DNA of 64,000 bases from Candidatus Curtissbacteria bacterium RIFCSPHIGHO2_01_FULL_41_11 (GCA_001776335.1 MFAZ01000043.1:3984-67983); one strand, 5' to 3'; shown: positions 4,290 to 9,889, counted from the stretch's first letter. Notes: a model not told the origin generated them from the sequence alone. Numbers and translations are program-made.

Positions 4290-5828
4290 TTAATTATTAT
4301 CATTTGGGCGATATTGGAGGGATTCTGCGACATGATTTGATTTGATTTTGACGGAATCTTCCAGGTCGGCAATAGTTCTTGCAATTTTAATGACTCTATG
4401 AAATGCCCGTGCTGATAAGTTGAGTTTTGTAATTGCTTGTTTTAAAAGCAATATTGATTGCTCGTCTAAATTGCAAAACTGTTTAAGTTGCTTGTTGTTC
4501 ATTTCTGCATTTGATGTAATCTTTTGACCTTTGAATCTTTTAAGCTGAATGTCTCTGGCTCTCTGGACTCGTTTTTGGATTGTTGCTGATGATTCCGACT
4601 TAAATGCTAGAGTGAGTTTATCCGGACGCACCATGGGGACTGATATGTGCATGTCGATCCTGTCCAAAATTGGACCGGAAATTCTTTTTTGATAACGTGT
4701 AATTGCCGAGGGTGTGCAGGTGCAATTCCTGGTTTCGTCTCCAAAATAACCGCAGGGACATGGATTCGCTGCAGCAACTAAAGAAAAGCGGCATGGAAAT
4801 TTTACCGAACCGGCAGCACGTGAGATGGTAATATGACCATCTTCCATTGGTTGGCGAAGTGCCTCCAAAACTTGTCTGGGAAATTCGGGGAATTCATCAA
4901 GAAATAAAACTCCCCGATGTGCCAAGGAAATTTCTCCGGGTCTTGGAATATTGCCTCCTCCAATTAGACCAATATGACTTGTTGTGTGATGAGGACTACG
5001 AAAAGGTCTCGATGTGATTATGGGGTTGTCTGATGATAGAAGATTGGCGACTGAATAAATTTTGGTTACCTCTAAACTTTCTTCGAAGGAGAGAATTGGC
5101 AGGATCGTAGCATAACTTCTAGCCATTAAAGTTTTGCCGGCTCCAGGCGGACCTTTCATCAGAACGTTGTGGCCCCCAGCTGCTGAAATTTCAAGTGCAC
5201 GTTTAGCGCTTTCCTGGCCTTTGATATTTTCGAAATTATATTCACCGTCTTCGATGTTGGTATATTTTTGTTTCTTAAATTTTGCGGGACTTATGGATTT
5301 TGGCTCTGTTTGATTTAATGTTGAAAAGTGGTCGAAGAGTTGTTTAAGAGATTTAACAGGGAAAATTTTTATCTTGTCTACAGTTTGAGCTTCTTCCAGA
5401 TTGTCTTCGGGAATGAAAAGATTTTTAAACTTTTTGTCCCTTGCAGTTATTGCGCAAGGCAAAACTCCCCAAATTCTACGAAGAGAACCATCGAGAGAAA
5501 GTTCTCCTAAGAATATGGAGTCTGACAAATCGGGGTTCTGTAATTGCTCCGAAGCGACGAGTATCCCAAGTGCCATCGGAAGGTCGTAAGCGGGACCTTC
5601 TTTGGGAAGATCGGCGGGTGCCAGGTTGACTGTTATTCTTTTTGGAGGCATGTCGGCGCCGGAGTTTTTTAGCGCTGCGCGAACCCTTTCTTTGGATTCT
5701 TCTACTGCTTTGTCTGGAAGACCAACTATGGTAAAACTTGGGAGACCTTGCGCGGCAATATCAATTTCCACGGTTATCGGAACCGCATCAAGACCAACAA
5801 CTGCAGCCGAGGTAATTTTAGCAAGCAT
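4290..5828 (-). CDS. comM: YifB/ComM family Mg-chelatase-like AAA+ ATPase
   Basis: 512 aa. N-terminal Lon-protease-like domain, Walker A GPPGAGKT, C-terminal Mg-chelatase-like region. Confidence 0.9.
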   Translation of the reverse strand: MLAKITSAAVVGLDAVPITVEIDIAAQGLPSFTIVGLPDKAVEESKERVRAALKNSGADMPPKRITVNLAPADLPKEGPAYDLPMALGILVASEQLQNPDLSDSIFLGELSLDGSLRRIWGVLPCAITARDKKFKNLFIPEDNLEEAQTVDKIKIFPVKSLKQLFDHFSTLNQTEPKSISPAKFKKQKYTNIEDGEYNFENIKGQESAKRALEISAAGGHNVLMKGPPGAGKTLMARSYATILPILSFEESLEVTKIYSVANLLSSDNPIITSRPFRSPHHTTSHIGLIGGGNIPRPGEISLAHRGVLFLDEFPEFPRQVLEALRQPMEDGHITISRAAGSVKFPCRFSLVAAANPCPCGYFGDETRNCTCTPSAITRYQKRISGPILDRIDMHISVPMVRPDKLTLAFKSESSATIQKRVQRARDIQLKRFKGQKITSNAEMNNKQLKQFCNLDEQSILLLKQAITKLNLSARAFHRVIKIARTIADLEDSVKIKSNHVAESLQYRPNDNN

Positions 5829-5830
5829 TT

Positions 5831-6433
5831 TTAAGCTTTAGGATAGGCGATAACTATTAGACGTTTTTCGTCGAAGTTACCATCACATGTATAAACAGTC
5901 AGTTGATCTCTTGGAGAGATTATTGAATCGACATCTTGAGGTGTGACTTTTCTTTTTTCCGAAACAAGGTACGTGTATACCTTGTCTTTTGTTTTAACAT
6001 TTATCTCTGCCCCCACACTGATGTTTGCTAAATTCCCTAAAACGTTAGTCCTGTTGTGCCCATACAAAATAACATTACCTGAACCTGGTACTTCTGACGT
6101 AGAAAGCCATGAAACGCGAGTATCGGAGAGAGTCCAAACATTATCAACAATCTGACCGGGAGAAATTGGCAGATTAATGTTAACACTTGGGATTGAGATA
6201 AAAGTTGGTGGGGATAATTCTTGTTGTGCGGAGGTGTTTTCGGAATTTTGTGATACGGGTGAGGGCTTGGCAATTTTTGCTGCAAGAGTTTGTTTTTGTT
6301 TGTCTTCACCTAAAAGGTTTTTGACTATTTTTGTGGGGTAAATTTTTATAGCAAGAAGCGCAATGATGGTTGCGCTCATTCCGAAAATTAACAGTTGTAT
6401 GAAGTAATCACTCTTCAGCTTTGCTCCTGGCAA
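5831..6433 (-). CDS. Sortase family transpeptidase
   Basis: 200 aa, N-terminal TM. Catalytic His (ILYGHN), Cys (TVYTCDG) and Arg (RLIVIAYP) motifs. Confidence 0.75.
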   Translation of the reverse strand: MPGAKLKSDYFIQLLIFGMSATIIALLAIKIYPTKIVKNLLGEDKQKQTLAAKIAKPSPVSQNSENTSAQQELSPPTFISIPSVNINLPISPGQIVDNVWTLSDTRVSWLSTSEVPGSGNVILYGHNRTNVLGNLANISVGAEINVKTKDKVYTYLVSEKRKVTPQDVDSIISPRDQLTVYTCDGNFDEKRLIVIAYPKA

Positions 6434-6770
6434 TTTTTAAACCAATCAGAAAAGCAAGTAATCCAACTCCAAGTGCTATCACCCATTTTGCTATTTCTTT
6501 ATTGTTGCTCGTTTCTCCGAGAGTCGTCGTTTCACCGAGTACTTCCTGCTTGGTGGTGCCGCCTGCGGCTGCAGAACTTGATGAGGGAGTTTCAGATGGC
6601 GAAGGTGTGTCGGTGGGTGAAGGACTTGGCGAGGCTGAAGGGTCTGTGGATGGGGAGGGGCTTACGCTCGGGCTTGAGCTGGGGTCGGTTTGGGCAAAAG
6701 CGGTAACAGCTCCAGCAAATATTAAAGCGCAGGATGTGGCTAGCGCTAAGGCAGCTTTCCTTAATATCAT
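6408..6770 (-). CDS. Putative sortase substrate: signal peptide, Ser/Pro/Thr-rich low-complexity region, C-terminal TM helix and basic tail
   Basis: 120 aa. Signal peptide ALATSCALIFAGAVTAFA|QT, Pro/Ser repeats, then ...VLGETTTLGETSNNKEIAKW-[TM]-KIARSKAEE. Overlaps the sortase start by 26 nt and has its own promoter. Confidence 0.5.
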   Translation of the reverse strand: MILRKAALALATSCALIFAGAVTAFAQTDPSSSPSVSPSPSTDPSASPSPSPTDTPSPSETPSSSSAAAGGTTKQEVLGETTTLGETSNNKEIAKWVIALGVGLLAFLIGLKIARSKAEE

Positions 6771-6780
6771 GCAATATCTA

Positions 6781-6809
6781 GATTATCTAAAAACAGGCTA
6801 AAATTGCAA
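6781..6809 (-). promoter_or_regulatory. Sigma70-like promoter TTGCAA-17nt-ATAATC for the sortase-substrate/sortase pair
   Basis: -35 at 6809..6804 and -10 at 6786..6781, 10 nt before the ATG at 6770. Confidence 0.4.
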
Positions 6810-6823
6810 TACCCAAGATTTTT

Positions 6824-7657
6824 TCACTTTTTTGACTTTCTCCAACCGGCGGCTTGAGCGTCTTCTTCCGTGCAAAACCATCGTTCTCCCTGTGATTGGT
6901 CAATTTGGGTTTTGTTGTAATAATATTGTCCAGGCATATGATAAATTTTACCATTTGAGCTTATATTCCCTTTGACTATGCAATTTGCATCCGGGGGCTG
7001 CTGATTCTGAAAGGTTTGAACCGGTGCTTTATAAGATGAGTTGCAGGCTGACCACAATCCTAACTTATTCTGCTCCGCCTCTTGTTGAGCCTGCAGGAGT
7101 TGATTTTGATACTTTATGTCTGGCGGATAAGAGCTTGAGGTGGCATATCCCTGGCGCACAAGAAGATCGTTGACCATAACACCTTCAATATAAACATACC
7201 TCAGGAGTCTTCCATATTTGTCTGTTTCGGATACATCCTTCTCTAAAGTGACATTTTTACCTTCTACCAATTCCTTGTTTTTGCTTGCGGCTTCTTGCCC
7301 AAAACATTGCACAGTTTCCCGTGGATCTACGGTTTCTGGTGTATCAATTCCAATGTATCTGACTCTTTGGCCTCCTTCCCCTCCAGAGACGGGTCCGCCT
7401 ATGGCGGAGATTTCTATTGTGTCACCATCTATTACTCTGATTACTTTAAATATTTGTTCGGTAGTTGTTTCGGTAGTTGTTTTGAGTATTGTCGGACTTT
7501 GCTGATTTGAAGTTTTTGCACCTTGGGTTTTTTCTCCATCAATTTTAATACTTGTTGAAACGGGTTTTTTGAAATTTAAAGAAAAAACAGAATAGGAAAA
7601 TACAAGAGCTAATAGGGCGACGAGTGATATTAAAGAGTACTTAAATTTCGGAGGCAA
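6824..7657 (-). CDS. Secreted thermonuclease (SNase-like) family nuclease with a C-terminal Cys-containing domain
   Basis: 277 aa, N-terminal TM or signal. SNase motifs VIRVIDGDTIE, RVRYIGIDTPE, GRLLRYVY. C-terminal CIVKGNISSNGKIYHMPGQYYYNKT...GERWFCTEEDAQAAGWR. Confidence 0.8.
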   Translation of the reverse strand: MPPKFKYSLISLVALLALVFSYSVFSLNFKKPVSTSIKIDGEKTQGAKTSNQQSPTILKTTTETTTEQIFKVIRVIDGDTIEISAIGGPVSGGEGGQRVRYIGIDTPETVDPRETVQCFGQEAASKNKELVEGKNVTLEKDVSETDKYGRLLRYVYIEGVMVNDLLVRQGYATSSSYPPDIKYQNQLLQAQQEAEQNKLGLWSACNSSYKAPVQTFQNQQPPDANCIVKGNISSNGKIYHMPGQYYYNKTQIDQSQGERWFCTEEDAQAAGWRKSKK

Positions 7658-8149: not shown

Positions 8150-8737
8150 ATGAGTAAAAAAGATTCTCTGCTGTCTGCAGCTGCCGGATTAGGTGTGGCC
8201 GTTTTTTTGGTGCCGACTCTTCTTAATACAAATATTGGAAGCAAGATTCCTCTTTTCCCTTTGTCTCTTTTGGCACTGCCGGTTTTTACTTATGGCGGAA
8301 TGTTCGTTGCAAGTATTATCGGAAGATCCTTTCCAATTCTTTGGCAACTTGCGAAGTTTGCGCTTGTCGGGGTTTTAAATACTGCGATTGATTTCGGAGC
8401 TTTAAACTTTTTGATTGCCAGAACAGGGGTGGTGAGCGGACCGCTCATTATTGCACTCAACGCAACATCATTTTCACTTGCTGTAATTAATAGTTATTTC
8501 TGGAATAAAGGTTGGGTTTTCCCTGAAGGGAAAAAGTCTAATTTTCTGACCTTTTTTGCGGTTACCTTGGTTGGGCTTGCGATAAATTCTGGGGTTGTTT
8601 TCATTCTGACTACTTTTGTTTCTCCCGTATTTGTGACTTCAAGTAAGCTTTGGGCGAATCTTGCGAAGGTACTTGCAACAGGACTTTCTTTGGTTTGGAA
8701 TTTCCTGGGATATCGTCTAATCGTATTTAAGCGTTGA
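8150..8737 (+). CDS. GtrA family membrane protein (polysaccharide-synthesis flippase-like) with an N-terminal extension
   Basis: 195 aa. GtrA signature FALVGVLNTAIDFG ... WNFLGYRLIVF. Confidence 0.8.
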   Translation: MSKKDSLLSAAAGLGVAVFLVPTLLNTNIGSKIPLFPLSLLALPVFTYGGMFVASIIGRSFPILWQLAKFALVGVLNTAIDFGALNFLIARTGVVSGPLIIALNATSFSLAVINSYFWNKGWVFPEGKKSNFLTFFAVTLVGLAINSGVVFILTTFVSPVFVTSSKLWANLAKVLATGLSLVWNFLGYRLIVFKR

Positions 8738-9269
8738 GGTATTTTTTCAGTTTTTTTAAGGCGAGAGCCCTGTGAGAAATTTTGTTTTTTAATGATGAAG
8801 GCATTTGAGAATAAGTTTTGTTGTACCCCTTAGGAATAAAAACAAAGTCGAACCCAAAACCGGAATTGCCTCTTGCGTGTGGAATAACTTTTCCCCAAAC
8901 CGTTCCTTTGAAAACCTTTAAAGTGCGTCCATCGTAGATTGCGACAGCATCTGTCACCTTAGTTTTTCTACTTCCCTTAACCAATTGGACAGTTTTTTCC
9001 TCGCCTAAAGTTTTAAGGAAAAACTTTACAAACGGACCGGGCAGACCGTTTAATCCTTCAATTTCCAAGCTAACATCGGTAACTAAAACCGGCTTTTTAA
9101 TTTTTTCGTATGCGGCTTTGGCTTTTTCGGTAATTACCTCGTCTAAGTTTAACGACTGGATTTCGGGAATATCTATATTGGAGATTTTATGGTTGGTCCC
9201 CAAAATTGCATTGATTTCGTCAATTTTGCCAGCGTTTGAAGTTACAACTACAAGATCGCTGATTTTCAT
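8727..9269 (-). CDS. rdgB: Non-canonical purine NTP pyrophosphatase (RdgB/HAM1, ITPase)
   Basis: 180 aa. TSNAGK, SLEIEGLNGLPG, GFGFDFVF motifs. Confidence 0.85.
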   Translation of the reverse strand: MKISDLVVVTSNAGKIDEINAILGTNHKISNIDIPEIQSLNLDEVITEKAKAAYEKIKKPVLVTDVSLEIEGLNGLPGPFVKFFLKTLGEEKTVQLVKGSRKTKVTDAVAIYDGRTLKVFKGTVWGKVIPHARGNSGFGFDFVFIPKGYNKTYSQMPSSLKNKISHRALALKKLKKYLNA

Positions 9270-9889
9270 TATATTTTTACTCCTGATTTTTTTAGGCTGC
9301 TAGCCAAACTTTTTGAACCTTTAAATAAGATTGAATGAATTCCAACAGAATTTGCACTTTCTATATTTGCAATTTTGTCATCAATAAATATTACCCCAGA
9401 AGGCTTCACTCTTATTTTTTTTAAAACGTGTAAGAAGATTTCTTGATCAGGTTTTTTTAAACCGAGCGTAAATGATGTAAAAACTTTATCAAAAAGTTCG
9501 TAAATTCCAGTTTTACCTATAGCATTGAAATGAAGATCTATGGTGTTTGAAAGTAAGTAAATTTTATAATCTTTTTTAAGTTTTTTGATTATTTTGATAA
9601 CTTGTTTATCTATATCCACTTGGGATTCATGAATTTTTTGCCATGTTTCGATTATACTTGCTATCGTTTTTTCACCTGATGTGATGTTTTGAAAAAGTTT
9701 CGCAACTTTTTTGACATTTAATCTACCCAGGGTCCAGTCATTTTTATACTTTTCGTAAAATTCTTGGACCTTTATGTCCTCAATTCCAAAGAAATTTCCC
9801 ATTAGTTCGAAGGTATTTTCATAAGTGTGTCTGAGGACGACGCCTCCCAAATCAAAAATGATAGCTTTTATCATTTTATTCGTATTCAA
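9269..9889 (-). CDS. HAD superfamily hydrolase (subfamily IA)
   Basis: 206 aa. IFDLGGVV motif I, SNT and DD motifs. Confidence 0.7.
   Translation of the reverse strand: MNTNKMIKAIIFDLGGVVLRHTYENTFELMGNFFGIEDIKVQEFYEKYKNDWTLGRLNVKKVAKLFQNITSGEKTIASIIETWQKIHESQVDIDKQVIKIIKKLKKDYKIYLLSNTIDLHFNAIGKTGIYELFDKVFTSFTLGLKKPDQEIFLHVLKKIRVKPSGVIFIDDKIANIESANSVGIHSILFKGSKSLASSLKKSGVKI

Follow-up and report, generated by a model that had tools for sequence, protein, structure and literature searches.

Which protein does a sortase act on when the gene that overlaps its start encodes a small, secreted-looking protein lacking every familiar sorting motif, and at which peptide bond? The question arises from a 64,000-nucleotide (nt) stretch of the Candidatus Curtissbacteria bacterium RIFCSPHIGHO2_01_FULL_41_11 genome (MFAZ01000043.1:3984-67983; the window), whose minus strand encodes a protein of 120 amino acids (aa; the mini-protein) followed by a 200-aa sortase, both listed as "hypothetical" in GenBank. 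The two genes probably form a translationally coupled cassette in which a membrane-anchored sortase of a candidate phyla radiation (CPR) clade is paired with a single dedicated substrate carrying a non-canonical signal. The coordinates of both genes and their parts are collected in the table below.

The mini-protein, which is identical in sequence to OGD86366.1, has the tripartite organization of a surface protein proposed in the initial annotation of this DNA, and our analysis bears this out: a signal peptide, a Ser/Pro/Thr-rich stalk and a C-terminal transmembrane (TM) helix ending in a KIARSK tail. The signal peptide is helical at residues 2-26 in the AlphaFold2 model, and Ala26 and Gln27, on either side of the predicted cleavage site, are invariant columns in the alignment of homologues. 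Residues 27-73 have pLDDT values below 50 and no secondary structure, and no fold is predicted for the mature protein as a whole. Family-wide, the linker between the signal peptide and the motif is 64% Ser, Pro and Thr (24, 22 and 19%, respectively). Beyond it the chain reads V77-LGETT-T-L84GETS88, then NNKEIAKW, the TM helix (pLDDT 85-91) and the tail, with the pentapeptide LGETS ending 8 residues before the helix (stretches around the signal: KQEVLGETTTLGETSNNKE, TTTLGETSNN and KQEVLGETTT). The mini-protein thus has the layout expected of a sorted protein, with a signal peptide at one end and, right behind the motif at the other, a hydrophobic helix and positively charged tail. As the initial annotation had stated, none of LPXTG, LAXTG and NPQTN occurs in its 120 residues. 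A reading as a lipoprotein modified at Cys14 was discarded because a lipobox is missing and homologues do not conserve the Cys; a weak low-complexity match of one homologue (P0037) to PF27998, "ArabinogalactanP", was uninformative.

The GC-rich character of this segment, also remarked on earlier, is real and has a simple source. The mini-protein open reading frame (ORF) has a GC content of 0.507, whereas the window averages 0.399 (standard deviation 0.04); a value this high is found in only 0.3% of equal-sized windows, and the peak of 0.585 at positions 6501-6700 is due to the Ser/Pro/Thr-rich linker. The enrichment therefore reflects Ser, Pro, Thr and Ala codon composition.

The second gene encodes a sortase by all the measures applied. 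PF04203 matches the 200-aa protein with E = 9.8e-21 and 74.2 bits (cutoff 26.6), and TIGR01076 scores 40.7 bits, above its cutoff of 39.35. The predicted catalytic residues His126, Cys183 (in the motif YTC) and Arg191, noticed in the initial annotation, are invariant in an alignment of 27 homologues. In the AlphaFold2 model, a helix (residues 7-31) is joined by a disordered linker to a β-barrel predicted with confidence (residues 78-198, pLDDT >90), and there is no lid of the class C type. The deposited protein (OGD86365.1, 182 aa) begins at an internal ATG that cuts off the N-terminal membrane anchor. We favor an upstream TTG start (6433 or nearby) because the N termini of homologues align with the TTG-started form; this start restores the full TM anchor and produces a 26-nt overlap with the mini-protein gene, in agreement with the overlap annotated initially. 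The overlap in turn suggests coupled, roughly stoichiometric expression of the two proteins.

The sortase itself lies outside any of the defined classes A-F. Classification with hidden Markov models of these classes, suggested in the initial annotation, yields no assignment: the NCBIfam scores are 44.4 bits against a cutoff of 140 for SrtD-LPxTATN, 39.4/160 for class E, 37.3/165 for class D, 34.1/160 for class C, 31.4/166 for class F and 16.2/158 for class GN, and models of classes A and B are absent from the sortase matches at E ≤ 0.1. Related CPR sortases likewise fall below every class cutoff. Comparison of the model with solved structures (Foldseek) retrieves sortases A, C and D about equally well (~1e-9, probability 1.00), and a sequence profile search of the PDB barely separates classes A, C and D, with the class A structure 2kw8 at 7e-15. 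With the class models below cutoff and this near tie, the class of the enzyme is not assignable.

If the mini-protein is the substrate of this enzyme, the two should travel together. Homologues of the sortase, 42-99% identical, are found in Curtiss-, Davies-, Gottesman- and Chisholmbacteria and in CPR bins. In every Microgenomates-type locus for which upstream sequence is available, a mini-protein lies directly upstream of the sortase; there are 23 such loci (L001, L003-L011, L013, L016, L019-L022, L024-L028, L032 and L035), or 24 with the window, and their sortases are 36-67% identical to the window enzyme. The partners are 92-153 aa long, usually overlap the sortase gene and share a signal peptide, a low-complexity region, VLGxxT.LGxT[GSND], a TM helix and a tail. 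A 54-aa profile of the C-terminal region run against 1.84e9 representative sequences gave 48 matches, of which ~43 are mini-proteins of 92-153 aa with the domain at the extreme C terminus. Four long matches (P0063, P0070, P0069 and P0079) were set aside as unrelated repeat proteins of the "LGDGTSANHIAKW" type rather than signal carriers. In P0063 (915 aa) and P0070 (468 aa), the LGxT...AKW part of the profile had picked up tandem repeats of ~52-56 residues with F(T/I)xLGDGTSAxxIAKW. These are probably of the β-propeller type and the match coincidental.

No other carrier of a sorting signal was found besides the sortase-adjacent genes in ~560 kb (the window plus the loci with ±10 kb), nor any second ORF with an LPXTG-like tail in the 64-kb window; canonical LPXTG in other candidate substrates, which would have spoken against an unusual signal, is therefore absent from both. 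These observations support the conclusion that the pair is conserved and restricted to Microgenomates/CPR, as the initial annotation had suspected in calling it lineage-specific.

In the mini-protein of one Chisholmbacteria locus (L013:9643-10005, plus strand), the Ser/Pro/Thr-rich linker has given way to a strongly acidic one rich in Glu and Val (EEEEIVEEEEVLEEEEVV...), and the VLGGATELGDTG-TM-KIARS end is kept. Disorder and signal are therefore conserved and linker chemistry is not. Taken with the lack of a predicted fold, this replacement indicates that the feature under selection is a disordered hydrophilic spacer.

To define the signal, we lined up 55 members of the family at their last L[GA]xT. 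The resulting logo reads K-x-E-V-L-G-x-[A/T]-T-x-L-G-x-T-[G/S/N/D]-x-x-[K/R]-[E/D]-[I/F]-A-K-W-TM, followed by the tail. The initial annotation had described duplicated LGET repeats and proposed the signal [VT]LGET. Its non-canonical character stands, as there is no LPXTG and P3 is Gly, but the motif as written does not: the Glu is variable (11/55 at the x of the second element), and the two elements differ, VLG-x-[A/T]-T versus L-G-x-T-[G/S/N/D], the apparent repeat being an accident of the window sequence. In the second element, L (55/55), G (54/55) and T (55/55) are essentially fixed, x is Ala, Ser, Glu or Asp (15, 14, 11 and 7 of 55), and the last position is Gly in 23, Ser in 21, Asn in 5 and Asp in 5. 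The second element thus behaves like LPXTG, with P4, P3 and P1 fixed, P2 free, a small or polar P1' and a short, fixed distance to the TM helix. It does not, however, fit either known pentapeptide: LPXTG fails on LGETS here and on L-G-x-T-[G/S/N/D] in the family, and the Ala at P3 of class E LAXTG is replaced by Gly in 54/55 of the Microgenomates-type proteins, Ala being confined to a sister CPR group.

The first element is conserved to a similar degree, V, L and G each being present in 51/55 members, and in the window it too can be read as L-G-E-T-T. The sortase could accordingly cut within VLGETT, for example after T81 or T82, or cut in both elements, in which case the second LGxT[G/S] would be a spacer or relic. 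Duplication of VLGAST in the larger substrates of sister sortases, described below, could be taken in the same sense. However, the position of the first element equivalent to P1 (the fifth, counting from V) is Ala in 26 and Thr in 25 members, and known sortases require Thr at P1. Because Ala is as frequent as Thr at this would-be P1, the two elements are not equivalent. In addition, the elements are 0 to 2 residues apart, depending on the family member, whereas the distance from the second element to the TM helix is stable. We therefore regard cleavage in the first element as improbable, a view reinforced by the partners of more distant sortases.

Sortases from other CPR lineages with 36-51% identity to the window enzyme in the catalytic domain have upstream partners of 200-390 aa. 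The four sister partners that were scanned (L012, L014, L015 and L017) contain an Fn3 domain, one of them together with an F5/8-C-like domain, and the sister partners as a group end in (Q)VLGAST...LAATG, LASTG, LADTG or LAMTG and then a TM helix. QVLGAST is present in one or two copies ahead of LAATG, and in nine sister loci (L012, L014, L015, L017, L029-L031, L033 and L036) it is preceded by a conserved Cys-bearing segment, RAVN(D/G)C(T/M)PGDPS. Sortases that are only 28-33% identical have upstream partners of 345-888 aa that end in LPVTG-TM-RR and lack the VLG element; their LPVTG falls in line with the second motif, at the same distance from the TM helix, which argues further against cleavage in the first. 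The presence of upstream partners across all three groups of sortases indicates that the upstream-substrate arrangement is old.

The pentapeptide at the equivalent position is thus LPVTG, then LAxTG, then LGxT[G/S]. This positional equivalence makes LGETS (residues 84-88), cut after the Thr, the probable sortase site, and the second element alone is likely to be the sortase pentapeptide. The occurrence of the same signal on folded passengers elsewhere shows that it is modular, which argues for a true sorting signal over a structural feature of the mini-protein. The most fitting description is a variant of LAXTG/LPXTG with Gly in place of Ala or Pro, not an unrelated signal. Automatic annotation already treats the mini-protein as sortase-sorted, as the UniRef name for the exact sequence is "LPxTG domain-containing protein", which implies that a PROSITE-type rule fired. 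We looked for a residue in the enzymes that would determine P3; the catalytic domains of G-type and A-type sortases are very alike, and the alignment of G-, A- and P-type enzymes has soft differences (WTLYD..VSWL versus WDLFD..VAWL) that are insufficient to name one.

These results suggest a model for the cassette. The substrate would be exported by Sec and its signal peptide cut off after AFA26, and the C-terminal TM helix (residues 97-111) with its basic tail would hold it in the membrane. The sortase, through Cys183, His126 and Arg191, would then recognize L84-G-E-T-S88; Cys183 would attack the T87-S88 bond, cleavage would occur after Thr87, and a Ser/Pro/Thr-rich peptide of ~60 residues (Q27-T87) would be passed to an amine of a peptidoglycan precursor. 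The outcome would be a wall decorated with a disordered hydrophilic brush, possibly O-glycosylated; a glycosylated surface brush is a plausible identity for the passenger. The VLGx[AT]T element may extend the recognition signal or may be what is left of a duplicated motif.

Two known sortase systems are among the closest parallels. The class E enzymes SrtE1 and SrtE2 of Streptomyces coelicolor, which anchor the chaplins ChpA-C (PMC5148588), are likewise membrane-anchored, housekeeping-type and without a lid; in both systems a small residue replaces Pro at P3 and small surface proteins are anchored, and the sister CPR loci have a literal LAATG at the equivalent position. Unlike class E, the window sortase scores 39 bits against a class cutoff of 160, P3 is Gly rather than Ala, the extra VLGx[AT]T is present, one adjacent, overlapping substrate takes the place of a dispersed regulon, and the host belongs to the CPR rather than the Actinobacteria. 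With the class A/LPXTG system of Staphylococcus aureus SrtA the cassette shares the signal peptide, Leu at P4, Thr at P1, the hydrophobic helix, the charged tail and a Cys/His/Arg transpeptidase; it differs in lacking Pro at P3, in having Gly at P1' in just 23/55 members and in a substrate without a folded passenger domain. GspA, a substrate of Actinomyces oris SrtA, offers a conceptual precedent for the brush, as its main feature is that of a glycan carrier or surface polymer and not of an enzyme or adhesin (PMC6381275, PMC9282373). GspA is, however, larger (mature residues ~31-256), its glycosylation has been demonstrated, and adjacency to its sortase is not known from these two papers.

A different role is suggested by SafA, a 52-aa protein encoded downstream of an actinobacterial SrtA; with an FPW motif on the exoplasmic side, it binds the TM segment of the sortase and keeps signal peptidase from cutting (PMC9282373). 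Like SafA, the mini-protein is encoded beside a housekeeping-type sortase and is a small single-pass membrane protein with an exoplasmic juxtamembrane Trp motif. It could therefore be an uncleaved membrane factor that stabilizes or regulates the sortase, or the remnant left after cleavage, [G/S]xxKEIAKW-TM-tail, could do so. In favor of such a role, most family members keep the K (48/55) and W (45/55) of the A-K-W on the outer side of the TM helix, the tail is conserved as well, and the gene overlap implies a fixed stoichiometry. On the other hand, SafA-type proteins are ~50 aa long with no signal peptide, an N-in/C-out topology, FPW after the TM segment and a gene downstream of the sortase, and the mini-proteins share none of these features: they are 92-153 aa long and encoded upstream, with a signal peptide, a C-terminal TM helix (N-out/C-in) and AKW rather than FPW, located before the helix. 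SafA has no LPXTG-like motif, and a mere regulator would need neither a signal peptide nor a Ser/Pro/Thr linker of 50-100 aa nor an LPXTG-like motif with a free P2. The LAxTG-type and LPVTG-type partners of related sortases, moreover, are ordinary surface proteins with several domains, and they lack AKW. A SafA-like function in place of sorting is thus doubtful, and we give it about as little weight as cleavage in the first element.

The pairing of a dedicated sortase with one substrate also recalls pilus islands, and the sortase might polymerize mini-proteins head-to-tail through Lys74 of GGTTK into a thin Ser/Pro-rich fiber, as pilin-specific sortases do. Lys74 is invariant in the nine closest homologues, and a Lys lies 8-12 residues ahead of the second motif in 36/50 family members; however, the mature region of 9/50 is devoid of Lys. 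Sortase-assembled pilins have folded Ig-like/CnaB domains and an obligatory pilin-motif Lys, whereas the mini-protein has no pilin fold and no YPKN-like motif and its mature part is disordered. The missing lid and the class C score (34 against 160) are also out of keeping with a pilin sortase. We consider polymerization very unlikely.

Several points nevertheless weigh against sorting at LGETS as we propose it. We infer the cleavage site, the wall acceptor, glycosylation and the biological role from sequence. We know of no native sortase that has been shown to accept Gly at P3, and 'LGXTG' was not found in the literature searched; a sortase substrate without any domain is itself unusual. The anchor models Gram_pos_anchor (Pfam) and LPXTG anchor (NCBIfam) do not match the mini-protein at E ≤ 0.1, and when five close homologues were scanned at E ≤ 10, among them P0031 with 98% identity, the Pfam anchor model again found nothing. 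The scan for other substrates in the genome covers the window, ~7% of the genome. Finally, AKW and the tail after the motif are conserved beyond what a disposable retention signal would require, which hints at an extra or different role. A further reading would be a one-enzyme/one-substrate module in Microgenomates whose only task is to graft a domain-less, probably glycosylated brush onto the wall and whose xxKEIAKW-TM-tail remnant then acts as a SafA-like partner, making the cassette a self-regulating pair of substrate and chaperone; this extension of the cassette model is rather unlikely.

Table. Positions of the sortase/mini-protein cassette, its predicted parts and neighboring features in the window
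Feature	Position	Strand	Remarks
Sortase coding sequence	5831..6433	-	200 aa + stop; TTG start; overlaps mini-protein coding sequence by 26 nt
Sortase N-terminal membrane anchor	6341..6403	-	~residues 11-31, then near-invariant YP; from alignment
Sortase catalytic β-barrel	5840..6208	-	residues 76-198
Sortase His126	6056..6058	-	codon checked in sequence
Sortase Cys183	5885..5887	-	codon checked in sequence
Sortase Arg191	5861..5863	-	codon checked in sequence
Mini-protein coding sequence	6408..6770	-	120 aa + stop; predicted dedicated sortase substrate
Signal peptide	6693..6770	-	residues 1-26; predicted cleavage AFA/Q
Disordered Ser/Pro/Thr-rich linker	6543..6692	-	residues 27-76; end GGTTK (K74)
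Upstream conserved element VLGETT	6525..6542	-	residues 77-82; family VLG-x-[A/T]-T
Predicted sortase pentapeptide LGETS	6507..6521	-	residues 84-88; predicted scissile bond T87/S88
Juxtamembrane AKW	6483..6491	-	residues 94-96; predicted outer face
C-terminal TM helix	6438..6482	-	residues 97-111; hydrophobicity scan
Charged cytoplasmic tail KIARSKAEE	6411..6437	-	residues 112-120; family [KR]..[RK]S..EE-type tail conserved
Promoter-like hexamers TTGCAA-16-GATAAT	6782..6809	-	11 nt upstream of mini-protein ATG; 9/12 consensus match
YifB/ComM-type ATPase gene	4290..5828	-	2 nt past sortase stop
Staphylococcal-nuclease homologue gene	6824..7657	-	
AT-rich segment	~9200..9800		junction of minus-strand ORFs 8727..9269 and 9269..9889

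The initial annotation had also given the mini-protein gene a promoter of its own, which cannot be demonstrated. Matches of the 9/12 type occur 13 times against 8.8±3.2 in shuffled sequence, about the rate of chance, and TTGCAA-GATAAT is therefore only a candidate; a separate promoter is possible.

The wider surroundings of the cassette were considered as part of a conserved neighborhood and rejected, as YifB downstream and the nuclease upstream are found only in the closest relatives. The gene past the sortase stop encodes a YifB/ComM-type Mg-chelatase-like AAA ATPase (TIGR00368, 4e-190). This order is limited to Curtissbacteria-like loci (L019, L003, L001/L002 and L020), and YifB is therefore probably not functionally tied to the cassette. 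The gene on the other side encodes a staphylococcal-nuclease homologue (Pfam SNase, 5.9e-28) that is membrane-anchored or secreted and ends in a 'sunset' domain (NCBIfam NF051437, 52.9 bits versus a cutoff of 27); it adjoins the mini-protein gene only in the closest relatives L019, L001 and L025 and is absent in L003. Farther away, the AT-rich segment has a GC content of 0.28-0.29 versus 0.40 for the window. Nine of the loci used here (L004-L006, L010, L011 and L014-L017) come from records titled 'uncultured Gammaproteobacteria bacterium' despite being clearly of CPR/Microgenomates type, which looks like a systematic mislabel of deposited metagenome-assembled genomes.

The machinery described here is textbook and automatic annotation already names the substrate LPxTG-like; what the locus adds is a lineage-specific variant, not new machinery. 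We found no paper that joins sortase, LPXTG and CPR bacteria and none on the sorting signals of CPR sortases, the presence of a sortase being noted in a single sentence of CPR genome papers. If the proposed signal is correct, it would extend the known series of P3 residues from Pro and Ala to Gly, and a native sortase that recognized LGxT[G/S] or VLGxxT-LGxTG specifically would provide an orthogonal recognition sequence for sortase-mediated ligation. The envelope biology of the CPR/Patescibacteria is almost unexplored, and a disordered Ser/Pro/Thr-rich peptide as the sole detectable substrate of a conserved sortase would suggest what these ultrasmall cells carry on their surface.

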